50,845 nt of DNA, taken from contig JACPGQ010000003.1 of NCBI GenBank assembly GCA_016188975.1, positions 1-50,845 of the forward strand, given 5' to 3'. The position numbers were made by a program, and so were the translations under genes. The stretch's first letter is position 1, and each line of letters begins with the position of its first letter. This DNA comes from Candidatus Levyibacteriota bacterium. Lineage in GTDB: Bacteria > Patescibacteriota > Microgenomatia > Levybacterales > UBA12049. Shown here in pieces: positions 4,456-49,808 of this stretch. The notes under the pieces were generated by a model that was not told where the DNA came from, searched no databases, and saw nothing but the letters and a program-made list of their open reading frames with translations.

Positions 4456-4507
4456 GTTTCTATCCACCCCCGGGGTGGAAGTAGCTTTACACCCGCGGAG
4501 GATAAGA
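4456..4507 (+). repeat. 52-bp direct repeat, copy 1
   Basis: GTTTCTATCCACCCCCGGGGTGGAAGTAGCTTTACACCCGCGGAGGATAAGA is identical to 7480-7531. It contains the near-palindrome CCACCCCCGGGGTGG. Confidence 0.95.
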
Positions 4508-7458: not shown

Positions 7459-7908
7459 TTATTCTTTGGAATTTCTAGTGTTTCTATCCACCCCCGGGGT
7501 GGAAGTAGCTTTACACCCGCGGAGGATAAGAGGATAAGAGTGAGGAGTCACGATATTTATTGATTGATCGCGGAAGTACTCTGCAAATCGTTGCATCAAA
7601 ACTTCAAATGTTCCTCGTTGTATAAGAAGCGAATTTCTATAGTCAATAGCAAGCTCCACCGGGAGTGCAGGATCGCCTCCGTTTTCAATATAATAAAATG
7701 GAACGTCAGGCATTCGATAAATGAAAAATGGCGATATGACTCCTGGCACCATCCCGAGCATACGAGTTGGGTCAAAAGTTGATAAGCTCGTGCCAATAGT
7801 CGTAACAACCGTATACCGTGGTGAGTTGCCGATAAACTTGAGAGTAACTGTGCGGACTGGTTCTGGAGGAGTATCTGAATCAAAATGCATCCGTGTGTAA
7901 CAGTTCAC
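7459..7908 (-). CDS. hypothetical protein whose C-terminal 17-24 residues are encoded by the 52-bp repeat
   Basis: 149-aa ORF with an alternative start (an ATG lies 6 codons in). No known motif. Its 3-prime end runs through repeat copy 2. Confidence 0.4.
   Translation of the reverse strand: MNCYTRMHFDSDTPPEPVRTVTLKFIGNSPRYTVVTTIGTSLSTFDPTRMLGMVPGVISPFFIYRMPDVPFYYIENGGDPALPVELAIDYRNSLLIQRGTFEVLMQRFAEYFRDQSINIVTPHSYPLILRGCKATSTPGVDRNTRNSKE
7480..7531 (+). repeat. 52-bp direct repeat, copy 2
   Basis: Identical to 4456-4507. It is followed by a local duplication of GGATAAGA. Confidence 0.95.
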
Positions 7909-8062
7909 ACTTCGGACAAATTCTGCCGATTGGGAAAATTTGTCAACGTTATGTTAAAAAAATCGGTTTCTAAATTATGTAAGAAACTATCAAGAACATG
8001 ATGAGTTCTCTGTGCCTAGATACTGTATATAGTATGTAGGACGGCTAAAACCTTGATTACTA

Positions 8063-9945: not shown

Positions 9946-11622
9946 TTAGTGCTCTATCGCGTGGAGCACGGGGAGATACATTCTCTCGATGTAGGCTCTG
10001 AACATTCGCGTCGCGCTGAATTGGTTCAGAGACATTGCTCGGGCATTTTTCATATGCGCCACCCACTCGTCTCTTTGCTCAAAATACATCGGAAGAATCT
10101 GGTCATGTAAAGCATTGTGAATACTTTTGCTAATACTATCATTATCAAGTATCCATCCAATTCTGAATAGCTCTGCTTCATCTACCCACCCGTCTTTCGT
10201 ACTTACCGGAATTGTTCCGTTTAAAGCAGCTTTCATGCCGCTTGTGCCACATGCCTCAAATCCGACGACTGGGGTATTGATCCATATATCACACCCAGCG
10301 ACCATCAACCGGGCAAGTTCCAGGTTATAGCTTGAAAGATACACGATTATATCTTTCAGCTCATTTTTTGCCAAATGAACAATCTGTTGCATAAGAGAAG
10401 CACCGTCGACGTCCCCCGGAGGCGCAAATCCAGATACAACGACGCGGACTCTTCTTCCCTCTGCTGTGGCCAGAGACTTGAAACGCTCTACGTCTTGAAA
10501 GAGGGCGAGGGGCCTTTTGTAGGGAACCATCCGTCTTGCCCACCCGATAACAAAATCCTCTTCGTCCCACGACACTCCCGTCCGCACGTGAAGATATGAG
10601 AGGAGTTTTTGCTTTTGCCCTGTATGGTACGCAAGAACATCATCCCCAACCTCTCCATCCCAGGTTGGGATGTGTACGCCATTTGTTACAATTTCCATGG
10701 GATGGTCAGCCCAAATCTCTTTTGCTTTCTGTTGGTGAATCGTGCTGACCGCATTTATCCTGTTTGCGATCCTAAGCGAAAGCATCGTCATCGAAAATCT
10801 GCTTGAATCCTGAATCAGTCCGAGATTGACAATTTCATTTGCGGGGACCTGCAGTTCTTCAGCGTATTTGTGAAGCATTGTCGAAACCAAATCATTACTA
10901 AACACTTCATTGCCTGCACTTACAAGCGTGTGGTTTGTAAATACGATGTGACGTTTTGCAAGCGAGATTGCATCCTGAAAACTCACCTGACGCCTGACCA
11001 TCTCATGACGCATCAGGTCCAGAATAAGCATTGCTGAGTGCCCTTCGTTGAGGTGATAAACGGATGGGTGAATCCTCAGCGCTTCCAAAAGCCGTATGCC
11101 CCCAATCCCTAAAACCATCTCCTGTTTCAGCCGTGTTTCCTTATCCGTCGTGTATAGCCTGCTGGTTATCGCTCTGTCCTCAGCACTATTTTCCTCAACA
11201 TTTGTATCCAGAAGAAAAACGTTCACATTTTTGTAGGAGTACTTCCAGGCGGAAACAAGAATATGCCGGTCTTGGATTGGGACCGTGAGCTTGATCGGAT
11301 TGCCAAAAGTATCATTCACAGGGACGATTCCGCTGTCTTTTGGGCCGAGCACTACCGTCCCGTCCACAATACTTCCGGTTTCATCAACTTTTTGTGAGAC
11401 ATATCCTTCTCGATAATAAAGCCCCAATGCAACAAGCGGAAACGACCGGTCTCCCGCTTCTTTGATAGTATCCCCTGACAAAACCCCCAGTCCGCCTGCA
11501 AAAATGGGGAGCTTGTCGGACAAAGCATACTCTGCGCTAAAATACGCGACCGGCTGAGTCTGAAACTGCTTGAAATCGTCAGTCTGGAGAAAAGAAGAAA
11601 ACCAATTCAGATCATCCTGCAT
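9946..11622 (-). CDS. glgP: alpha-glucan (glycogen/maltodextrin) phosphorylase family protein, GT35
   Basis: 558 aa. FSAEYALSDKLPIFAGGLGVLSGDTIKEAGD and EACGTSGMKAALNG (PLP-Lys region) are typical of the short alpha-glucan phosphorylases. Confidence 0.85.
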   Translation of the reverse strand: MQDDLNWFSSFLQTDDFKQFQTQPVAYFSAEYALSDKLPIFAGGLGVLSGDTIKEAGDRSFPLVALGLYYREGYVSQKVDETGSIVDGTVVLGPKDSGIVPVNDTFGNPIKLTVPIQDRHILVSAWKYSYKNVNVFLLDTNVEENSAEDRAITSRLYTTDKETRLKQEMVLGIGGIRLLEALRIHPSVYHLNEGHSAMLILDLMRHEMVRRQVSFQDAISLAKRHIVFTNHTLVSAGNEVFSNDLVSTMLHKYAEELQVPANEIVNLGLIQDSSRFSMTMLSLRIANRINAVSTIHQQKAKEIWADHPMEIVTNGVHIPTWDGEVGDDVLAYHTGQKQKLLSYLHVRTGVSWDEEDFVIGWARRMVPYKRPLALFQDVERFKSLATAEGRRVRVVVSGFAPPGDVDGASLMQQIVHLAKNELKDIIVYLSSYNLELARLMVAGCDIWINTPVVGFEACGTSGMKAALNGTIPVSTKDGWVDEAELFRIGWILDNDSISKSIHNALHDQILPMYFEQRDEWVAHMKNARAMSLNQFSATRMFRAYIERMYLPVLHAIEH

Positions 11623-11741
11623 TCCTTAAAGTATAACAAACATAAAGAGGTTCGGTAAGCGGTAACGAAGCCCGTATCGGTAACGTTAAACGTATAACGT
11701 TTTACGAAACTGGCATCGTAACCGAAAAACGCTAAACATCA

Positions 11742-17489: not shown

Positions 17490-17577
17490 TGGCGGAGAGG
17501 GAGGGATTCGAACTCGCGGTATCTTGCGATACGACGGTTTAGTAAACCGTTACCATAGACCACTCGGTCACCTCTCC
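17490..17577 (-). tRNA. class II tRNA-Ser-like gene, anticodon read as ACT, weak T-stem
   Basis: The minus strand reads GGAGAGG-TG-ACCG-AGTGGTCTA-TGGT-A-ACGGT-TTACTAA-ACCGT, then a long variable arm (GTATC-GCAA-GATAC), then GCGAG-TTCGAAT-CCCTC-CCTCTCC-G-CCA. The acceptor, D and anticodon stems are good. The T-stem has 2 mismatches in 5 pairs. Confidence 0.65.
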
Positions 17578-17898: not shown

Positions 17899-18052
17899 AA
17901 AATTTCTAATTTCTAAATCCTAATCCGTCAGTTGACGGACTAAACAAACCCCAATAACCAAATCCAAAAAGGTTTTGAACTTTTATATCTTGAACTTGTT
18001 TAGGATTTCGATATCAGGATTTTATTAGGTAAATTAGAAATTAGGTTAATTA
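17899..18052. mobile_element. MITE-like intergenic element with AATTTCTAATTTCTAAATCCTAA / ATTAGAAATTAGG termini
   Basis: It has the same termini as 26983-27168. An inner core of about 45 nt is about 80 percent identical, in inverted orientation, to 19858-19920. The right end overlaps the carbamoyltransferase stop codon. Confidence 0.6.
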
Positions 18053-24739: not shown

Positions 24740-25480
24740 ATGAGTCGTAACTATTTAAATAAACAAGTGCTTCGCGAGAATGCGCTTGTCTACGATGATT
24801 ACTACCAATCAGGCATTATTGATGGTTGGGAGGAGCATGATAAAGTATATAATTTTGGACATCTTTTCAAGATAGCAAAAAAAGCGAAGATGTCGCTTTG
24901 CAACGCATCAGTCCTTGATGTCGGTTGCGGCACAGGAGATATTATCCCCTACCTTCAAAAACAAGGGGTAAAAAAATATATAGGGATTGATATCTACAAA
25001 CCAGCGCTGAGAATCGCGAAGAAAAAATATCCGCAAGAAACGTTCGTCCTCATCGATATTCTCGACACTACTTCGTCATCTTCGCGAACGCGAAGATCTA
25101 GATTCACGGTCCCACTAAAAGCGAGGCTCGCCTTTGGCGGCAAGTCGGGAATGACAACGAATAAGTTCGACTTCGTCCTCTCCTCGGGTGCAATCAGTAT
25201 CAAATTGAAGAGTCTTGATAATTATGAGTTTTTGGAGGCCATGGTGAGAAAAATGTGGAAGATGAGCCGACACGGACTAGCATTCAATGTCCTGACAGAC
25301 GAAGACATCGCGCCAGCCAAGCATCTTTTTTATTACTCAATTGAAAAAGTCAGAAAACTTTGTAAACAGATTGCACCAGATGCAAAGATTGCAATCAGAC
25401 GTACGCCCATTCACAATCGCGGGTACGAAGATGAAGCGCAAATCCACGTGTACATGACAAAAAGCTCCCAACTATCCTAA
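24740..25480 (+). CDS. class I SAM-dependent methyltransferase carrying an internal insertion
   Basis: 246 aa with motif I VLDVGCGTGDI, beta-2 YIGIDI and beta-4 FDFVLSSG. The spacing between beta-3 and beta-4 is unusually long. Confidence 0.75.
   Translation: MSRNYLNKQVLRENALVYDDYYQSGIIDGWEEHDKVYNFGHLFKIAKKAKMSLCNASVLDVGCGTGDIIPYLQKQGVKKYIGIDIYKPALRIAKKKYPQETFVLIDILDTTSSSSRTRRSRFTVPLKARLAFGGKSGMTTNKFDFVLSSGAISIKLKSLDNYEFLEAMVRKMWKMSRHGLAFNVLTDEDIAPAKHLFYYSIEKVRKLCKQIAPDAKIAIRRTPIHNRGYEDEAQIHVYMTKSSQLS
25067..25165 (+). repeat. hairpin-rich in-frame insertion within the methyltransferase CDS
   Basis: It encodes TTSSSSRTRRSRFTVPLKARLAFGGKSGMTTNK. It contains the palindrome ATCTTCGCG-AA-CGCGAAGAT and the hairpin CGCCTTTGGCG, which is also present at 2349-2360 and 17598-17610. 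Confidence 0.5.
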
Positions 25481-26980
25481 ACTCTTTCTCAGCCTTGCGG
25501 CTTCTTCTATAAGTTTCCCAAGCGTCTCCCCTTTGACCATCTTCTTGTAAATTTTGTCAGTCAACTTCAAGTGCTGTTTCTCAGCATCGGTTTTCGGACC
25601 GAGCGGTTTTTTCAGATATGCTTCTATTGCGGCGGTATCCTCAATAACTCCATTCCACGCTTCATTTTCTTTTGCTAACTTCTGCAGATTATCTTTATTG
25701 AGAAATCTTCCTGATCGGTCGAGATCATCTCCAAGCTGCAGATAATATTTTTCAATAAGAGCAATCTTTCCTTCTTTTTGCGCTCGAGCAATCCCCCTTC
25801 CCGTCCCGATAATCTCAGGCGGAACACCAAGTGAATAAAGTGCTCCGGTAAATGAAATTGCTCGCGGCAGCTTTACCTTCCCGACTCCCCTTGAATAACC
25901 AAAAAGTCCTATGTGCAACACTCTTTCCCGCCGTTTCGGGATATGCCTGGCAACAGCATTGATTGTCTCGGCGATCGACTCAATTGTCTGTGCATAAAGC
26001 GGCTCAAAAAGCTCACTTGCCTTAAGCAACTCTTTTTCATCAGCACTGTTCACAGTTTGCGCTTGGCCTTCTGGCAGTAGCTTCTCAAGTCTTGCAATTG
26101 CATGGATTACTTCTTCTTTGTCATAGTCATACCGAAACGCGCTTTGGATGACTGCGGTCCTGATACCTTCATATTCCTTGGCAAATCCTTCGACATTGTG
26201 TGGAGTCAATCCCCCTCGAAACGGCAGTGAGGCACAGCCTAAGATCGGATACATCTTCACGCCAGTTTCTTTCTGCAGTTTTTTGTATCGTGAGAGCGCA
26301 ATTTTTATTGCTAGTACTGTCGGGACGATGCCGGAATTAAGCGCTGGATCAGACCTCGCAAGAAATGGACGGAGGTAGTGAGGGTACTCGCCAAACCTTT
26401 TGAGATGGCGCTTGAGGTACTCGCGTAAGATCTCATCAGACGTCGCGATCGTTTGGATATCCTCAAAAAGAGGGATCAGGCTGACATATTTTAAGCTCTC
26501 ACTGTCAAAACGAAAAAGAAAATGCTTGAGGTTTGCTATTTCTGAGAACGCTTCCTGGACATCCATCATCAGCTCTGCACTTTTTGTCATTGGCAAGATG
26601 ACCTCAAAAAGAGGCGGGCTGTGGAGTCCGACCTGCTTGGCCATCGTCGCTGCAGACAAAAGCCCCATAAACGTCCTCCCCAACCGAAACTCCGTCTCAA
26701 CAACGGGGTTTGGAAGCCTGAAGGTGATAAATTTGTCACGCCCCAGCTGCATGTCCTTAAAATACGCAAAATGCTCAGAAAGCATCCGTTCCATCACCGA
26801 CTCATCAACGAGCTTACCCTCCCAATCCCACATATACTCAGATGCGCCAAGCTCTGAAAAAGAGAGAAAACACTCTTTTGTCTCATGCCGAGTTTCAATA
26901 AATGTACTGCTGTGCCAATACGGCACACCAGCATGGTCCGGATGCTGGGAAACCATAGTGGCGGGTATTTTCCTTTTCAT
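25472..26980 (-). CDS. ppcA: archaeal-type phosphoenolpyruvate carboxylase
   Basis: 502 aa. The N-terminus KIPATMVSQHPDHAGVPYW and the overall length match the PepcA family rather than the roughly 900-aa bacterial Ppc. Confidence 0.8.
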   Translation of the reverse strand: MKRKIPATMVSQHPDHAGVPYWHSSTFIETRHETKECFLSFSELGASEYMWDWEGKLVDESVMERMLSEHFAYFKDMQLGRDKFITFRLPNPVVETEFRLGRTFMGLLSAATMAKQVGLHSPPLFEVILPMTKSAELMMDVQEAFSEIANLKHFLFRFDSESLKYVSLIPLFEDIQTIATSDEILREYLKRHLKRFGEYPHYLRPFLARSDPALNSGIVPTVLAIKIALSRYKKLQKETGVKMYPILGCASLPFRGGLTPHNVEGFAKEYEGIRTAVIQSAFRYDYDKEEVIHAIARLEKLLPEGQAQTVNSADEKELLKASELFEPLYAQTIESIAETINAVARHIPKRRERVLHIGLFGYSRGVGKVKLPRAISFTGALYSLGVPPEIIGTGRGIARAQKEGKIALIEKYYLQLGDDLDRSGRFLNKDNLQKLAKENEAWNGVIEDTAAIEAYLKKPLGPKTDAEKQHLKLTDKIYKKMVKGETLGKLIEEAARLRKSLG

Positions 26981-26982
26981 GT

Positions 26983-27168
26983 AATTTCTAATTTCTAAAT
27001 CCTAATTTCTAAACTCCACTTCGTTCTAAAGTACTTCGTGGAGCAGGCAATATCAATTTGCTGTGCCCTTCCGAAGTCCCGATTCAATCGGAACGAAGGA
27101 GGGTTTAGAATGTAGGTATTAGGATTTAGGATTTGATTAGTCATTAGAAATTAGGTCAATTAGAAATT
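26983..27168. mobile_element. MITE-like element with terminal inverted repeats, copy A
   Basis: The left end is AATTTCTAATTTCTAAATCCTAA and the right end is TTAGAAATTAGGTCAATTAGAAATT. Its core is about 90 percent identical, in reverse orientation, to 47970-48126 apart from an indel of about 20 nt. The right end encodes the last codons (KISN) of the aminotransferase. Confidence 0.7.
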
Positions 27169-28439
27169 TTAACGAATCGTTTGATTCGTTTCACCGCTTC
27201 CTCCAACACATCATCCGCTGCAGCAAATGAAAGTCTCACCCACCCCGGATACAAAAATGCTTCACCAGGAACGAGTGCAACGTGTTCTTTTTCCAAAAGC
27301 CCTGTGCACCAATCGCTCGATGTTTTATACTCTTTACCCAAACATTTCGTAACGTTTATAAAAAGGTAAAACGCACCTTCAGGCGGAACAACTGACAATC
27401 TATCAAGATCCGCAACAAAAGCCTTTAGGAGAAATCTCCGGCGTTTCGCAAACGCGTCTGCCATTTTTTTGATACTTCGTTGAGATCCGGTCAATGCTTC
27501 AACTCCAGCATACTGTGCGAGCGATGAAGTATTTGACGTTGTCTGGCTTTGCAAATTAATCATTGCTGAAATAACTTCCTTTGGTCCTCCTGCATACCCT
27601 ATCCTCCACCCTGTCATAGCATACGATTTGGAGAAACCGTTGATGGTAATCGTCCGGGCTTTTATTTCTCTGCCAAATGATGCAATTGAGATATGTTGTA
27701 TTTTTTTTACTTTGTCATCCCGAACTTGACGGGTTACCGTACGGTACCCGTCTTGTTTCGGGATCTCTTTAGATGCTGAATCAAGTTCAGCATGACGGCG
27801 AGTGTCCATATACAAAATCTTCTCATAAATCTCATCAGCAATAATCCACACATTTTTTGCCATGGCAAGTTTTGTGATATTTTTTAATTCCTCCTCTTCA
27901 ATCACTGCTCCAGTTGGATTAGCGGGAGAATTTAAAATAATCGCCTTTGTCTTTTTGGAAATTTTTTTCTCAAGATCTTTTACTGTCAGCTTAAATGGAG
28001 GCTTCATTTTAGCCTCGCAAGGCGTGGCCTTGCAGAGTTTGATCTGTTCAATATAAGTACTCCAGGTTGGTACAGGGACAATAACCTCATCCCCTTCATC
28101 GCACAAAACCATCAATGCGTTGTAAAGCAGCTGCTTGGATCCAACGCCAACGACAATCTCTGATGGATCATACGAGATATGATTTTCTTTTAAAAACTTC
28201 TTTGCAACTTCCTCTCGAAGTTTCGTAATGCCAGCAGTTGTCGTATAATGCGTATGTCCTTTCTGCATCGCTAGTATCGCTGCGTCTTGGATGTTTTTGG
28301 GAGTATCAAAATCCGGCTCACCGAGTGAGAGATTGAGAATTTTCTTTCCTTGTGATTGCAATTTTTTGACAGTCCCGTCAACCGCCAACGTCGCAGAGGG
28401 AGCAAGAGTGCGTACTCGTGCGGATAATTTCGTCTTCAC
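27156..28439 (-). CDS. pyridoxal-phosphate-dependent aminotransferase, class I (aspartate aminotransferase-like), carrying an internal insertion
   Basis: 427 aa with a GTG start. It has LSLGEPDFDTP, NSPANPTG, IIADEIYEKILY and NGFSKSYAMTGWRIGY (PLP-Lys). Confidence 0.9.
   Translation of the reverse strand: MKTKLSARVRTLAPSATLAVDGTVKKLQSQGKKILNLSLGEPDFDTPKNIQDAAILAMQKGHTHYTTTAGITKLREEVAKKFLKENHISYDPSEIVVGVGSKQLLYNALMVLCDEGDEVIVPVPTWSTYIEQIKLCKATPCEAKMKPPFKLTVKDLEKKISKKTKAIILNSPANPTGAVIEEEELKNITKLAMAKNVWIIADEIYEKILYMDTRRHAELDSASKEIPKQDGYRTVTRQVRDDKVKKIQHISIASFGREIKARTITINGFSKSYAMTGWRIGYAGGPKEVISAMINLQSQTTSNTSSLAQYAGVEALTGSQRSIKKMADAFAKRRRFLLKAFVADLDRLSVVPPEGAFYLFINVTKCLGKEYKTSSDWCTGLLEKEHVALVPGEAFLYPGWVRLSFAAADDVLEEAVKRIKRFVKISN
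27711..27803 (-). repeat. hairpin-forming 93-nt in-frame insertion within the aminotransferase CDS
   Basis: It encodes TRRHAELDSASKEIPKQDGYRTVTRQVRDDK between the conserved IYEKILY and HISIASF blocks. The DNA carries TCCCGAA...TTCGGGA arms around GACGGGTTACC-GTAC-GGTACCCGTC, plus GCTGAA-TCAAG-TTCAGC. Confidence 0.7.
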
Positions 28440-29385: not shown

Positions 29386-29440
29386 CGTAACAGTTCACTC
29401 TTCCGAGCGAAGCGCTACTGCCACGATTTTGTCATTTCGA
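29386..29440 (+). repeat. 55-nt conserved element, copy A
   Basis: CGTAACAGTTCACTCTTCCGAGCGAAGCGCTACTGCCACGATTTTGTCATTTCGA matches 43971-44025 at 53 of 55 positions. Confidence 0.85.
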
Positions 29441-29533
29441 GTCTTCGACCCGCTTCGCCAAATGCGAATTTACTGTGTCCTTCCGTAGTTTTAACGAAGG
29501 AGGATTTCAGCATGACAGGTTTTGAAATGATTT

Positions 29534-37572: not shown

Positions 37573-37598
37573 TGACCAGTATACATGTATACTGGTCA
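37573..37598. repeat. 26-nt perfect palindrome, copy 1 (intergenic)
   Basis: The sequence is TGACCAGTATACATGTATACTGGTCA. It lies 24 nt beyond the stop of the minus-strand gene 37622..38167. Confidence 0.95.
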
Positions 37599-42051: not shown

Positions 42052-42600
42052 TTAATTTTCTTTTATCGAAACTGCTGAATAGATTGCTTTGAGAAATCTG
42101 GAGGGTTCGGTGGCAAGAAGTTCTGGCGGTTTAAATCCTGACTCGTGACATATTGTTTTAAAAGTTTCAAAAGAAAAGGGGTGTGGAACCCAGAGATTGC
42201 CATGATCAACATTGTATTCGACGATCAGTAACTTCCCCTTTGACTTGAGGTATTGTTTTAATTGCTTCAAAATGCCGACTCGGTCTTCGACGAAATGCAA
42301 TGAATTTGCAGCGAGGATGCCATCAAGAGGTGGAAGATCAAGATGTTTTGTAAAATCCGAAGAGATGTAATGAATATTCGTCCCAGGAAATTGCTGATCA
42401 AACGCTTCTTTTTGTTTTCTTAAACTTCCAGCATTCTTATCGATTGAAAAGATCTCAACTTCCTGGCCCACGACATCGCGAAGTGCTAAAGTGAACGCAC
42501 CCTCACCAGATCCCAGATCAGCCCAAACTTGCTTTCCAGGTTTAATCGCCTTTAGAATCAATCGCACATGGTCCTTATGAACCATATGACCAGTATACAT
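42052..42600 (-). CDS. class I SAM-dependent methyltransferase
   Basis: 182 aa with motif I WADLGSGEGAFTLAL and a later DGILAANSLHF block. The alternative start ATG at 42585 gives MVHKDHV. Confidence 0.75.
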   Translation of the reverse strand: MYTGHMVHKDHVRLILKAIKPGKQVWADLGSGEGAFTLALRDVVGQEVEIFSIDKNAGSLRKQKEAFDQQFPGTNIHYISSDFTKHLDLPPLDGILAANSLHFVEDRVGILKQLKQYLKSKGKLLIVEYNVDHGNLWVPHPFSFETFKTICHESGFKPPELLATEPSRFLKAIYSAVSIKEN

Positions 42601-42611
42601 GTATACTTGGT
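42587..42611. repeat. 26-nt palindrome family, copy 2 (degenerate, at the methyltransferase start)
   Basis: TGACCAGTATACATGTATACtTGGTA has a one-base insertion and a diverged end. Its central CATG is the annotated ATG of 42052..42600. Confidence 0.85.
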
Positions 42612-43970: not shown

Positions 43971-44025
43971 CGTAACAGTTCACTCTTCTGAGCGAAGCGC
44001 TACCGCCACGATTTTGTCATTTCGA
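43971..44025 (+). repeat. 55-nt conserved element, copy B
   Basis: It matches 29386-29440 at 53 of 55 positions. Like copy A, it lies about 55 nt upstream of a minus-strand start codon. Confidence 0.85.
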
Positions 44026-44080
44026 TGGTCCAGGCGAAGCGCTAACGCTGGACCTGAGAAATCCCCTGGAGATGACAATT

Positions 44081-44232: not shown

Positions 44233-45540
44233 CTAAGATGGGTGCACGTATCGATACGTGATTACAATCGTTGTGAGGAGAAAGAAGATAAAGTAAAGAA
44301 AACTCAATCTTCCAAACCAAACATCTTTCTTGAAAAGAAAAAGCAGAATGAGGGGCAAGAAAAGAAGACCGAGTAATACTCGATACGTCAGGGATGAAAA
44401 CCCAAAATATGGTTCAAAGAAATACTGAATCTGTGAGATACCCACAAGAAAACAGACGATCAAAAAAGCAACATTCTTCTTCTTCAAAACGTCAATGACA
44501 AATATTGCTGTCGCAATTACCATGAATGGAAACATCGGAATCATGTACCACCCACTTTGCCCTGCCTGAGAAAGTGATGAAAGAAGAAAGAGAAAATACA
44601 CAGTTGCGGGGATAAGGATAAGGAGATGCTTTTTATAATTAAGACTCAAAAACCCAAGTGCCAGAAATCCCACAAAATACCACCCGTCGTAGTAGACTTT
44701 GTTGACAATAACAGGCTGTAACAAAAGCATTTGGAGCGCTTCAGGTCCAATGTCTCGACTCGATTGAAGTGCTTGAATCTCCCAGAATAACTGCCAGTCG
44801 TAGTAGGCTGCATAGATAAATAGCAAACCAACAAAAAACATCCACGTGATGACCAGTATACATGTATACTGGTATTTCACTCTGTTCCAAAGAAAAAGAA
44901 GTACTAAAAAAACAAGGAGTGAAAGCCCCATTATCTTTGTTAGAAAAGTAATGCCCGCAATAACACCAAGAGCTACTACTCTTCTTCTCGTGAGCTTTTT
45001 CTTCCAACGGGAAAAAAGATAGATTGCAAATACAAATAACAGCGCTAATTGGTTCTCAGCCACAGAAACCCGTTGGTTCATGACAAAAATGGTGACTGTT
45101 GAATAAAGAAAGAGCGAAAGAATTGCAACTGAAAACCGGTACTCCCTTTTGACAAAGAAGAAAATGAGTATTCCGGTCAACGTGCTGAGTATAATCGGCA
45201 TCAAGCGGATTGTTGCAAGCTGTTGGGACTCAAATGCGGCCTGTCCAGAGGCGAGGAGAAAGGATCCCAAGATGAGAGCATATCCTGGCGGATGATCAAA
45301 ATACGGTGAAACGATCGGAAAATATATACCATCAATCGTCAAATCAATCCGCTTCGGGTATGCACGAAACGCGGACCAGGAAACTGGTACTCCTTGTGAC
45401 AATAAGCTTGTCCCCAGAAACGAGTACGTATATTCATCAGACGTCGCGCCTCGCTGGGGAAAATAGGTGTAATGATAAAACCTCACCCAAAGACTGAGAA
45501 AAATGATGAGAATGAAGAGAAGTTTTTGGAAAAATGTCAT
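44233..45540 (-). CDS. polytopic membrane glycosyltransferase (GT39 / ArnT-PMT-like)
   Basis: 435 aa with about 11 TM helices and the N-terminal loop YFPQRGATSDEYTYSFLGTSLLSQGVPVSW, as in PMT_2-type enzymes. Confidence 0.65.
   Translation of the reverse strand: MTFFQKLLFILIIFLSLWVRFYHYTYFPQRGATSDEYTYSFLGTSLLSQGVPVSWSAFRAYPKRIDLTIDGIYFPIVSPYFDHPPGYALILGSFLLASGQAAFESQQLATIRLMPIILSTLTGILIFFFVKREYRFSVAILSLFLYSTVTIFVMNQRVSVAENQLALLFVFAIYLFSRWKKKLTRRRVVALGVIAGITFLTKIMGLSLLVFLVLLFLWNRVKYQYTCILVITWMFFVGLLFIYAAYYDWQLFWEIQALQSSRDIGPEALQMLLLQPVIVNKVYYDGWYFVGFLALGFLSLNYKKHLLILIPATVYFLFLLSSLSQAGQSGWYMIPMFPFMVIATAIFVIDVLKKKNVAFLIVCFLVGISQIQYFFEPYFGFSSLTYRVLLGLLFLPLILLFLFKKDVWFGRLSFLYFIFFLLTTIVITYRYVHPS
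44850..44874. repeat. 26-nt palindrome family, copy 3 (inside the glycosyltransferase CDS)
   Basis: In TGACCAGTATACATGTATACTGGTA the 22-nt core at 44852-44873 is perfect. It is translated as KYQYTCILVIT. Confidence 0.95.
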
Positions 45541-47969: not shown

Positions 47970-48126
47970 AAATTGACCTAATTGCTCTAATTATTCTAAT
48001 TGACCTAAACAAATCCTAAATCCTAAGCACTACATCCTAAACCCTCCTTCGGGAGGGCACAGCAAATTGATATTGCCTGCTCCACGAAGTTCTTTAGAAC
48101 GAAGTGAAGTTTAGAAATTAGAAATT
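47970..48126. mobile_element. MITE-like element with terminal inverted repeats, copy B (inverted relative to copy A)
   Basis: The 63-nt stretch GGGCACAGCAAATTGATATTGCCTGCTCCACGAAGTTCTTTAGAACGAAGTGAAGTTTAGAAATT differs at 2 positions from the reverse complement of 27021-27083. Its end encodes the last codons (ISNF) of gene 48111..48623. Confidence 0.7.
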
Positions 48127-48623
48127 ATCTTCACAGCCTCAATTGCCCACGGTGTATATCTCTCGGGATTGTTCTTGACATCGATAATAAATGCGTCTTT
48201 AGGCATCCATTTATATTCATAGATAACATCGTTATTGGGAGAAACTTCTCCATTATATTTTCCGACTAACACCGCGCAATATTCATTCTCACAGTGTGCA
48301 TGGTATTTTGCAAAATAATTGAATCCTCCGATTTTTTTTATTTTGACATTTGAGATACCCATCTCATCTTTCAGTGATCGATTTACAGCCTCTTCATACG
48401 TCTCGTCATGACCTTCAGCAAAGTGTAACACGTGACTGATAGCAGTCAGATCCCAAAATTTATCCCACCTGACATGTTTTCGGAATTGCAGTAAGACTTC
48501 GTCTTTACTGTTCTCAAGCAAAACCACAAATGCACGGTGATGAATCCCTGTCCCAAAATGACACTCTCCTTTGTCTTCGTACTGCCCTGTCGGAATATCT
48601 TCTTCATCAACAATAATAAGCAT
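48111..48623 (-). CDS. NUDIX hydrolase, type-1 isopentenyl-diphosphate isomerase-like
   Basis: The start is set at the internal ATG (MLIIVDEED). It has HRAFVVLLEN..LLQFR and a Nudix-box-like ETYEEAVNRSLKDEMGI. The position that aligns with the catalytic Cys of E. coli Idi (WTNSVCGHP) reads WDLTAISHV. Confidence 0.6.
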   Translation of the reverse strand: MLIIVDEEDIPTGQYEDKGECHFGTGIHHRAFVVLLENSKDEVLLQFRKHVRWDKFWDLTAISHVLHFAEGHDETYEEAVNRSLKDEMGISNVKIKKIGGFNYFAKYHAHCENEYCAVLVGKYNGEVSPNNDVIYEYKWMPKDAFIIDVKNNPERYTPWAIEAVKIISNF

Positions 48624-48737: not shown

Positions 48738-49808
48738 TCAAAATAGATGCTGGTTAGCTACTCGAGCTCCGTTTGCAGGATAATTAATAATAACCTGCTT
48801 CACTTCTGGAAGTTGTTTTACAAGTTGTGTTACTTTTTCAGCATCCTTTTTTTGACAAATTAAATGAATATTCTGCCCTGTATTTACTGACCAGTATACA
48901 TGTATACTGGTCATCCTCCATTGTTTTACTTGTTTCATCAGGATAATCGTCGCCGGGTACCAATAGATAAGGGAGGGGTGTGATGTCAGCATGATTGCGT
49001 GCATTTCGAGTGCTTCGGCTTCGACAAGTTCGCCGAATGCTTGAAATTTTTTAGTTTTGAGATAGTCTTTGATCTTTGCAATTTTATTTTTGATCTTTTC
49101 TTGTCGTATGGAAAAGAAAGGGCTCGTATGTGCCAGTTTTTGTCCTTCAGTCGTACTGACATCTTTCACCTGATCGGTCAAAACGACTGCAATATCTACG
49201 ATATCCCAGTGCTCTGGAGGATACAATGAAACTGCATATGATGTGTCTGATGTATCCCCATCAAGCCACTCGACGAATCCGTCAGGAATCGAGCGACACG
49301 CAGATCCTGATCCCTGTCGAGCCAAGATGCTTAATTCTTTTTCGGAAAGATCAAGTCCCGCTGCTTTTGTCGCTGCCACAGTCAGCGCTGCGAATCCGGA
49401 TGCGGATGAAGACAAACCAGTCCCTCGTGGAAATGAGTTTTCAGAAACAACTTTTGCCTTATCAGAAATCCCTGCGAGTTTGCGGATACGATCCAGATGG
49501 GCTATGACTTTCGGGTCATTTTTTATTGTTCGAGCGAACGAAGTGAGTCGAGAACTCTCGAATCCATTGCTGTATTGCTTTATTGCTCTCTTGCTACTTC
49601 TCGATTCGTCACTACGTTCCTCACTCGAAGAATAAATAGTAATATCGTCTTCCGTATACTCAGAAGAAAACTCCACCGTCGTCGTTGTCGTGAGCCCCGA
49701 CAAATTCATCGAGATGCTTCCATTTGCAGGCAGTTTCAATTCCTCATCCTTTCGCCCCCAATACTTGACGAAGGCAATGTTAGATGGCGCGATAGCTGTG
49801 CTTTTCAT
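48738..49808 (-). CDS. mvaD: diphosphomevalonate decarboxylase homologue (GHMP family)
   Basis: 356 aa with APSNIAFVKYWGRKDEE, the GHMP motif GTGLSSSASGFAAL and GSGSACRS. It carries an internal hairpin insertion and a copy of the 26-nt palindrome. Confidence 0.8.
   Translation of the reverse strand: MKSTAIAPSNIAFVKYWGRKDEELKLPANGSISMNLSGLTTTTTVEFSSEYTEDDITIYSSSEERSDESRSSKRAIKQYSNGFESSRLTSFARTIKNDPKVIAHLDRIRKLAGISDKAKVVSENSFPRGTGLSSSASGFAALTVAATKAAGLDLSEKELSILARQGSGSACRSIPDGFVEWLDGDTSDTSYAVSLYPPEHWDIVDIAVVLTDQVKDVSTTEGQKLAHTSPFFSIRQEKIKNKIAKIKDYLKTKKFQAFGELVEAEALEMHAIMLTSHPSLIYWYPATIILMKQVKQWRMTSIHVYWSVNTGQNIHLICQKKDAEKVTQLVKQLPEVKQVIINYPANGARVANQHLF
48888..48913. repeat. 26-nt perfect palindrome, copy 4 (inside the decarboxylase CDS)
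   Basis: TGACCAGTATACATGTATACTGGTCA is translated as MTSIHVYWS. Confidence 0.95.
49531..49630 (-). repeat. hairpin-forming in-frame insertion of about 100 nt within the decarboxylase CDS
   Basis: It encodes roughly SSEERSDESRSSKRAIKQYSNGFESSRLTSFART. The arms CGAGCGAACGAAGTGAGTCGAGAA and TTCTCGATTCGTCACTACGTTCCTCACTCG are imperfect inverted repeats. Confidence 0.6.

Follow-up and report, generated by a model that had tools for sequence, protein, structure and literature searches.

The stretch of DNA analysed here (hereafter the window) is a complete metagenomic contig of 50,845 nt, JACPGQ010000003.1, from assembly GCA_016188975.1 of a Candidatus Levyibacteriota bacterium, which belongs to the Patescibacteria or Candidate Phyla Radiation (CPR). 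A class Ib aspartate/prephenate-type aminotransferase gene in this window carries, in frame, an extra segment built from strong hairpins, and judged by its sequence features this insert is a member of an already described and very widespread hairpin family, the repetitive extragenic palindromic sequences with a CGTC tag (CGTC REPs). In the reading that we favour, and that we consider probable, a non-autonomous dimer of two such hairpins was inserted in frame by an independent gain and is tolerated as a translated loop. A sequence-only reading of the window had already proposed that a mobile or repeated hairpin copy lies in frame in an otherwise intact essential enzyme, and this proposal is supported by the empty orthologues and by the copies elsewhere that are described below.

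An extra segment in the aminotransferase gene

The host gene (27156..28439, minus strand) was identified as an open reading frame (ORF) of 427 aa, P0001, which matches PF00155 (class I/II aminotransferase) at E = 8e-76, and the nearest solved structures in the PDB (6f77, 1j32, and 5wmh) are class Ib aspartate/prephenate aminotransferases. P0001 has kept every residue that is invariant over 62 homologues, among them N174, D202, Y205, K271, R279, and R402. When P0001 was aligned with its homologues (n=16; n=61), all sequences but one were found to read DEIYEK(L/I)LY-GG-K-H-x-SIAS at the site of interest, while P0001 has 35 more residues. In the comparison of filled and empty DNA, read together with the protein alignments, the whole extra segment covers 27699..27809 (minus strand, residues ~211-247); these 111 nt stand in place of 6 nt (GGn-GGn) in the empty orthologues, which leaves the gene 105 nt (35 codons) longer. 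The 31 residues quoted in the sequence-only reading, TRRHAELDSASKEIPKQDGYRTVTRQVRDDK, are exactly 27803..27711 on the minus strand. That reading was thus right about the place and the content of the insert, while it underestimated the gain, which is 105 nt and not 93; the repeat unit itself is a dimer of 83 nt. The empty orthologues also have no counterpart to 13 nt on one side of this core and to an A-rich stretch of 15 nt on its other side.

The insert region consists of two strong hairpins, one of them enclosing a third. Folded as RNA, a 116-nt stretch across the insert reaches -39.8 kcal/mol (z = -5.40), and none of 200 shuffled sequences folds as well; folded as DNA, the same stretch reaches -23.1 kcal/mol (z = -5.39), again with 0/200 shuffles as good. 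The hairpins that had been claimed at this place, TCCCGAA...TTCGGGA around GACGGGTTACC-GTAC-GGTACCCGTC followed by GCTGAA-TCAAG-TTCAGC, are indeed present, and the opposite strand does read VIPNLTG..LFRDL / MLNQVQHD as stated. A search of the window against Rfam at the gathering threshold returned tRNA only and no RNA family at the insert.

Anatomy of the hairpin dimer

Motif searches and alignment with a related element at another locus, L001 (loci and proteins used for comparison are referred to by L and P numbers), place the core of the insert at 27714..27796 (minus strand). Two CGTC-tagged REP or Ssn-related hairpins are joined here head to head into a dimer of 83 nt, which runs from GTCAT to ATGAC and on the coding strand (27796 down to 27714) reads GTCATGCTGAACTTGATTCAGCATC-TAAAGA-GATCCCGAAACAAG-(ACGGGTACCGTACGGTAACCCGTCAAG)-TTCGGGATGAC, preceded by C and followed by A; the general bounds of the element can be written as (C/T)GTCAT...ATGAC(A/G). 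The first hairpin, named G (27772..27797, minus strand), is C-GTC-ATGCTGAA-CTTGA-TTCAGCAT-C, with the tag, an 8-bp stem starting with AT, and a 5-nt loop, and its translation in the frame of the gene is RHAELDSAS. It is separated by the 6-nt spacer TAAAGA (27766..27771, minus strand) from hairpin C (27713..27765, plus strand), which is T-GTC-ATCCCGAA-loop-TTCGGGAT-C and reads IPKQ...QVRDD in the frame of the gene. In both hairpins an 8-bp stem beginning with AT is preceded on the outside by an unpaired (C/T)GTC tag and followed on the inside by a C directly after the palindrome. The tag of hairpin C lies on the strand opposite to that of hairpin G, and the two tags face outward. Spacers differ between copies in both length and sequence, being 6-25 nt in the metagenome dimers (the search pattern allowed 3-25 nt) and longer in dimers from genome contigs.

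A nested palindrome, GACGGGTTACC-GTAC-GGTACCCGTC (27728..27752, no strand), brings the loop of hairpin C to 32 nt and shows up as 27 extra columns in the alignment. Compared with other copies the loop is longer by exactly these 27 nt, and the added block is a near-perfect palindrome bracketed by a repeated CAAG. Its inner 25-mer has no second copy in the window (allowing up to 3 mismatches) or in the 170 fetched loci. Other long or hairpin-forming loop inserts were seen in L158, L170, L120, and L148.

In the window as a whole there are three perfect CGTC-type hairpins with 8-bp stems, where 0.01-0.13 would be expected from dinucleotide shuffles, as well as two degenerate GTCAT...ATGAC stretches. 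A 55-nt direct repeat, 96% identical between its copies, occurs at 29386-29516 and 43971-44076, and each copy is followed by a degenerate stretch of this kind (29431-29516 and 44016-44076), the second of which has another hairpin nested within its loop. The 55-nt upstream block is partly present a third time, at 7897-7916. These two degenerate stretches may be intergenic copies of this hairpin family in a state of decay, sitting on a conserved upstream block.

Filled and empty sites in related genes

The gene order LytR_C - aminotransferase - PEPcase_2 - methyltransferase is common to the window, L001, L002, and L125, and for this reason we regard the aminotransferases of these loci as true orthologues. 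Within this kept synteny of CPR-like contigs an archaeal-type phosphoenolpyruvate carboxylase (PF14010) adjoins the aminotransferase, at 25472-26980 (minus strand) in the window, 11258-12766 in L001, and 5766-7274 in L002.

Among the six closest proteins only P0005, encoded by L001, has an insert, which is located at the same turn as in P0001, while P0002, P0003, P0004, and P0007 are empty. The element of L001 has a core of 65 nt and reads GTCATCCCGAACTCGTTTCGGGATC, 15 nt of spacer, and GATGCTGAATCAAGTTCAGCATGAC, again preceded by C and followed by A; its additional flank is 10 nt on one side (13 nt in the window) and an A-rich 15 nt on the other. The two genes thus hold the same two hairpins at the same codon, with one element running in the opposite direction to the other with respect to its gene. 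All 25 positions of hairpin G agree between them and the arms of hairpin C are identical, while the spacers are unrelated and the host proteins share 66% identity. In a neighbour-joining tree the filled P0005 groups with the empty P0007 (81% identity) and the filled P0001 with the empty P0002 (74% identity). At the level of sequence, these comparisons show that the insert entered the aminotransferase gene of the window lineage after its split from the closest sequenced relatives, and that in a related lineage this pair of hairpins, turned the other way round, came to lie in the very same tight turn. Close orthologues are therefore without a homologous loop, and a loop shared throughout the clade, which would have spoken for an ordinary structural feature of the enzyme, was not found.

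The common insertion point suggests that few places in the enzyme tolerate inserts, rather than that the codon is targeted; a coincident position is expected, since the permissive turn of the aminotransferase is only three residues long. Site-specific homing into this codon was considered and given less weight, the survey of GatA proteins described below showing several insertion positions within one loop.

A second dimer and in-frame copies in other genes

At a distance of 2.5 kb from the aminotransferase insert a second in-frame dimer, GTCATCTTCGCGAACGCGAAGATC ... GGGAATGAC, is found at 25075..25155 (plus strand; 81 nt or 27 codons) inside the ORF 24740..25480 (plus strand), which has methyltransferase domains. 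Its first hairpin is a perfect CGTC REP and its second arm is degenerate. The orthologous methyltransferases of L001 and L002 are without exactly those 27 residues, so that this gain too belongs to the window lineage alone, and the junctions show no sign of a target duplication. As the methyltransferase orthologues are without the 81 nt and the relatives of the aminotransferase are empty, the window lineage gained at least two such elements since its divergence from the sequenced relatives.

Copies of the element are abundant in other genomes, in agreement with the notion of a repeat family. A metagenome scan for G-spacer-C dimers matched 44 loci, and about 9 of the ~37 distinct dimers lie in frame in real genes. 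These genes encode GatA (L127 and L145), threonyl-tRNA synthetase (L130 and L148), a class I tRNA synthetase (L153), two unrelated histidine kinases with the dimer in the same turn of the HATPase domain (L140 and L161), a GT2 glycosyltransferase (L157), and an Rsm22-like methyltransferase (L156). The genome scan added an in-frame copy in TsaD of a Daviesbacteria metagenome-assembled genome (MAG; L090) and an in-frame copy of the identical 25-mer in a class I tRNA synthetase of a Rickettsia endosymbiont (L033). Only frame-keeping insertions were seen in such genes.

The two GatA genes, which are 66% identical, repeat the pattern of the aminotransferase pair, with the dimer at the same position and in opposite orientations. 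Among the best 120 GatA proteins (P0165-P0284, several of them labelled Berkelbacteria or Patescibacteria) the loop after RYDGIRYG is mostly 18-22 residues long and rich in K and N, while other members carry many different REP-type peptides at several positions of the loop (HAELDSAS, RHPELVSGS, IPDQVRND, VDPRFRGDD, SFDSAQDD, and others). In Berkelbacteria-like genomes this loop is a hotspot that reaches up to 56 residues with in-frame inserts. Such variety points to repeated independent insertion filtered by selection and speaks against the recognition of a specific codon.

In the two threonyl-tRNA synthetase genes (L130 ~1380-1454 and L148 ~1107-1190) the dimer is followed by tandem copies of its last ~21 nt, that is half a stem and TGAC, read as (N/K)G(I/V)V(R/Q)DD. 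Duplications of the tag and half-stem were also seen beside many other copies (L127, L141, L142, and L160), and they may be the footprint of cutting and repair next to the tag.

Family membership of the hairpins

CGTC REPs were described by Di Nocera, De Gregorio, and Rocco (2013, BMC Genomics 14:522; PMC3733652) as hairpins with an unpaired CGTC tag (variants TGTC and CCTC), a stem of 8-9 bp starting with AT (first pairs A-T and T-A), a loop of 4-5 nt, and a short tail, occurring mostly as inverted dimers with outward-facing tags and in many copies per genome. The window hairpins share the tag, the stem, and the arrangement as dimers. The tag is CGTC in hairpin G and in the first hairpin of the methyltransferase dimer and TGTC in hairpin C, the stems are perfect 8-bp helices (ATGCTGAA/TTCAGCAT, ATCCCGAA/TTCGGGAT, and ATCTTCGC/GCGAAGAT for G, C, and the methyltransferase hairpin), and the inverted dimer is evident from GTCAT...ATGAC. 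The loops are 5 nt in hairpin G, 4 nt in the methyltransferase hairpin, and 32 nt in hairpin C, where L001, L127, and L145 have 5 nt, so that only the loop with the 27-nt nested palindrome exceeds the described 4-5 nt. Further differences are the tails, which are CTA or CTC in the window compared with the consensus CCA, the A/T-richer stems (ATGCTGAA and ATCCCGAA), and the host, as the five phyla of that study do not include Patescibacteria/CPR. The same authors reported that intragenic dimers encode 20-30 residues and that no associated transposase or other enzyme was found (PMC3733652).

The CGTC REP superfamily includes Neisseria dRS3 and two of the Rickettsia palindromic elements, RPE-6 (CGTC-1) and RPE-4 (CGTC-4) (PMC3733652). 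The comparison with Rickettsia made in the sequence-only reading is therefore more than an analogy, the more so as the identical 25-mer is in frame in L033; the link between the classes follows the assignment by Di Nocera et al. As far as they are represented in that paper, Ogata et al. (2000, 2002, via PMC3733652) describe palindromic repeats that sit in frame within genes for conserved proteins and whose translation is believed to yield loops that the proteins tolerate. In-frame insertion without disruption was likewise observed in the aminotransferase and the methyltransferase of the window, with the differences that the host phylum is another one and that the unit here is a two-hairpin dimer of 56-85 nt.

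The family is very widespread. With one loop base left free, the 25-nt hairpin G is identical in at least 120 genome contigs from many phyla, including Sphingomonadales, Bacteroidota, Treponema, Nitrospirota, Ignavibacteria, and Armatimonadota, as well as Rickettsia endosymbionts, Saccharibacteria, Daviesbacteria, and a Nanoarchaeota MAG. An inverted partner hairpin lies within 150 nt in 89 of the 140 listed matches to the 25-mer, forming dimers of 55-143 nt. In the flanks of ~40 dimers T is preferred before GTCAT and A after ATGAC, which lengthens the inverted repeat by one base, and no longer target motif emerged from these flanks. The peptides known from tiny hypothetical ORFs (MLNQVQHD, RHPELVSGS) turned out to be translations of these hairpins; a literature search for peptide signatures of this kind returned nothing relevant.

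GTAG REPs and REPINs with their RAYT enzymes, and the miniature derivatives of IS200/IS605, resemble the present elements in having a tag with a hairpin, inverted doublets, a small gene flanked by repeats, and recognition as single-stranded DNA, and also in the missing target duplication seen at the methyltransferase site. They differ in their GTAG tag, compared with CGTC/TGTC here, and in using a Y1/HUH transposase rather than a GIY-YIG nuclease, and transposition has not been demonstrated for the CGTC type. Membership in the REPIN/RAYT group was ruled out by the CGTC/TGTC tag and by the GIY-YIG gene that the hairpins enclose.

Association with putative Ssn-type GIY-YIG nuclease genes

According to Chenal et al. 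(2025, Nat Commun 16:2388; PMC11893778), the Neisseria NTS (CGTCATTCCCGCGMAVGCGGGAATCYRG) and related motifs (SRM) flank small genes for single-domain GIY-YIG proteins, the Ssn nucleases, which bind NTS/SRM solely as single-stranded DNA and cut a few nt upstream of the motif. Cleavage was found to depend critically on the GTC that precedes the palindrome, and binding on the C that follows it. All three perfect hairpins of the window have kept these critical nucleotides, with GTC upstream of the palindrome and C directly behind it.

The window hairpin type was also found in the corresponding gene arrangement, CGTCAT-palindrome-ATC hairpins around a single-domain GIY-YIG gene of ~95-100 aa. Hairpin G and an inverted partner enclose an ORF of ~100 aa with a GIY-YIG domain (PF01541) in L081 (Alteriqipengyuania), L097 (Sphingobium), L096 (a Flavobacteriaceae MAG), and L119 (Mesonia), the units being 388-465 nt long. 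In the metagenome locus L161 (11034-11770) the histidine kinase has its in-frame G-C dimer in the HATPase domain, and at about 300 nt from it, directly after the kinase gene, comes a hairpin-flanked GIY-YIG unit, with the gene at 11384-11683 and then another hairpin dimer. All forms of the element are thus assembled in one compact locus. Dimers occur together with a GIY-YIG gene in L148, L156, and L142 as well. Searches of NCBIfam and of PDB sequences with the hairpin-flanked GIY-YIG ORFs gave no match. From this architecture a link between the window hairpin type and the Ssn nucleases is strongly suggested. The present case differs from the published system in that no ssn gene is found in the window, and in that the part of the paper cited here treats intergenic repeats and transformation and does not mention in-frame copies (PMC11893778).

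Predicted fate of the insert

The insert contains no stop codon in the frame of the gene. The net gains of 105 nt (window aminotransferase), 84 nt (L001), and 81 nt (methyltransferase) are all multiples of three, while the 83-nt and 65-nt cores are not. Such frame-keeping is the pattern expected from selection for read-through, and it would serve no purpose in a segment that is cut out of the RNA. An AlphaFold2 model of P0001, built with the 61-homologue alignment, has a mean predicted local distance difference test score (pLDDT) of 91.1 and a predicted TM-score (pTM) of 0.89, with pLDDT values below 50 only at residues 215-220 and 222-241. Compared by Foldseek with structures of class Ib aspartate and prephenate aminotransferases, the model gives target-normalised TM-scores of 0.92-0.96. 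The modelling thus predicts a normal fold in which the insert alone is disordered, and most likely the insert is translated as a tolerated, disordered, and hydrophilic loop of 35 residues.

Two fates had been proposed in the sequence-only reading, translation as a surface loop and removal by some mechanism. The former is favoured by the open frame, the intact catalytic residues, and the model, while the latter found no support.

Other repeats and features of the window

Directly downstream of the aminotransferase gene lies an intergenic element of ~150 nt (26981-27155), which folds into one long hairpin (-56.8 kcal/mol, z = -7.1). An inverted copy is present 21 kb away at 48005-48127; the complementarity is 94% over an arm of 81 nt and 89% over one of 47 nt. 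Short repeats of the AATTTCTAA/ATCCTAA type are located at the ends of this element and also at 17901, and it looks like a different palindromic repeat, resembling miniature inverted-repeat transposable elements.

An exact direct repeat of 52 nt, GTTTCTATCCACCCCCGGGGTGGAAGTAGCTTTACACCCGCGGAGGATAAGA, is found at 4456-4507 and 7480-7531, 3 kb apart. The palindrome TGACCAGTATACATGTATACTGGTCA occurs in four copies (37573-37598, 42586-42607, 44848-44873, and 48888-48913), two of them the full 26 bp and the others 24 and 22 bp, which might be operator sites of one regulator or another repeat family. Finally, a tRNA-Ser with a long variable arm (17490-17577, minus strand) has the anticodon loop TTACTAA, because of which ARAGORN reads its anticodon as ACT, with an A at position 34 that is unusual in bacterial serine tRNAs.

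Discussion

According to the favoured reading, the insert would be a non-autonomous copy of a head-to-head CGTC-tagged REP dimer, carrying a motif (NTS/SRM) that Ssn-family GIY-YIG nucleases would recognise as single-stranded DNA. For its spread it would rely on an Ssn-type nuclease, which the genome would encode at another place or would once have had, and which would cut single-stranded DNA a few nt outside each tag. Once inserted, the element would be transcribed and translated together with the gene and would form a tolerated loop, as proposed for the Rickettsia palindromic elements, and the 27-nt palindrome in the loop of hairpin C would be a later, separate, and frame-preserving event.

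Several observations weigh against this reading or against parts of it. No Ssn-like gene was found on the 50.8-kb contig or in the fetched parts of L001 and L002 (tblastn with four GIY-YIG proteins gave noise only), and mobilisation in the genome of the window is for this reason unproven. The published SRM pattern, HGTCWYN(0-2)YYVSBRHN(0-5)WNVSBRGN(0-2)RNCYNB, has 0 matches in the window, while the Neisseria NTS used as a control does match. Hairpins G and C and the methyltransferase hairpin fail the pattern at its S and B stem positions, where they have A, and the pattern expects stems richer in G+C than the A/T-richer ones of the window. With no such gene in the window and no match to the pattern, the element is filed here under the CGTC REPs. 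The mechanism by which these repeats transpose is undemonstrated, and Chenal et al. go no further than to note their IS-like architecture (PMC11893778). In both the window and the L001 genes 19-22 nt of unrelated flank are also new and are not accounted for, and since only two perfect dimers occur in 50.8 kb the genome is not visibly repeat-rich. The case for translation, finally, is drawn solely from frame preservation and modelling.

The two filled aminotransferases could also go back to a single ancient insertion that the ancestor of the six closest proteins received and that was then inverted in place once and cleanly removed in four lineages, implying precise excision together with flipping or re-entry at the same site in a homing-like or peel-and-paste-like manner. 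That the same codon is filled in two lineages fits this scenario, as does the GatA pair of similar divergence (66%) with its same-position, opposite-orientation pattern. In addition, variants of the hairpin C loop are common within the putative lineages (ACAAG in the window and L127, ACGAG in L001 and L145), the methyltransferase insert is without target duplication as precise cut-and-paste predicts, and in both aminotransferase inserts the A-rich 15-nt flank is found at the same end with respect to the gene. Two gains are nevertheless favoured as the cheaper history, because a single gain would have to be followed by an inversion and by four independent events that each restored Y-GG-K-H exactly and removed the flank as well. 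Moreover, the spacers share nothing, the many hairpin types at several positions of the GatA loop point to repeated independent insertions, and the three-residue turn of the aminotransferase forces tolerated inserts to nearly the same codon. A single ancient insertion is therefore unlikely in our view. A slightly better, though still small, chance is given to the bolder idea that the dimers are an active element of CPR/Patescibacteria, able to leave its sites precisely and to enter them again in either orientation by means of Ssn-type nucleases. If so, the opposite-orientation pairs of the aminotransferase and GatA, the missing target duplication, and the half-site duplications would be footprints of a single-strand cut-and-paste or homing-like mechanism, which has never been shown for CGTC REPs, and CPR proteins would be remodelled by in-frame hairpin insertions on the scale known from Rickettsia.

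The remaining alternatives concern expression, function, and the assembly itself. Removal or skipping of the element during expression, by RNA excision, as an intron of the bulge-helix-bulge type, or by ribosomal bypass, would yield an enzyme without the loop. Removal as such was suggested in the sequence-only reading, the RNA hairpins at the site are very stable (-39.8 kcal/mol), and phage T4 gene 60 offers a precedent of translational bypass linked to a mobile element. Every intragenic copy that was examined is nevertheless frame-open with a total length divisible by three, and excision at the conserved ends of the 83-nt or 65-nt cores would shift the frame. Given also that no Rfam family reaches the gathering threshold there, and that SsnA is inactive on RNA (PMC11893778), we find such removal very hard to credit. 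It is somewhat easier, if still improbable, to imagine that intragenic hairpins are kept as useful, either as Ssn cut sites on single-stranded DNA that protect or modulate recombination and transformation at essential genes or as mRNA structures that tune translation or stability. In Neisseria, according to the same work, interactions of NTS and SsnA modulate natural transformation and the repeats cluster near important genes (PMC11893778); here both stems are perfect 8-bp helices despite their coding location, and a head-to-head dimer offers one cleavable orientation on each strand. Against a useful role stand the sister lineages without the insert, the heterogeneous host genes and positions, the decaying second arm of the methyltransferase copy, and the window without an Ssn gene. 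That the repeat was wrongly joined into the gene during metagenome assembly deserves hardly any credence: the window is a single metagenomic contig and was seen once, but the insert is in frame with colinear aminotransferase sequence on both sides, an independent assembly (ENA, L001) has an equivalent insert, and comparable cases were met in other genes on dozens of independent contigs.

Independent in-frame gain of a non-autonomous dimer thus remains the reading that we favour. In-frame palindromic repeats have been known in Rickettsia since 2000, intragenic CGTC REPs since 2013 (PMC3733652), and the link to nucleases since 2025 (PMC11893778). What the present analysis adds is a clear case in a CPR-type genome and evidence that such insertions are common in CPR proteins, together with the filled/empty and two-orientation pairs at the same loops, the nested palindromes in hairpin loops, and the frequent duplications of tag and half-stem next to the copies. 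A search for literature on in-frame palindromic insertions in CPR, of incomplete coverage, found none.

For annotation, the finding means that many tiny hypothetical proteins (MLKQVQHD, RHPELVSGS, VIPNLFRD, etc.) and unexplained loops of CPR proteins are translations of one repeat family, and recognising this family would improve gene calling and alignments and keep such loops from being mistaken for lineage-specific functional domains. For the biology of these organisms, it means that repeats famous from Rickettsia and tied to the Ssn nucleases of Neisseria also enter the coding sequences of uncultured bacteria with reduced genomes, where the same permissive loops are struck repeatedly, and the filled/empty and two-orientation pairs are natural experiments on how these repeats move.

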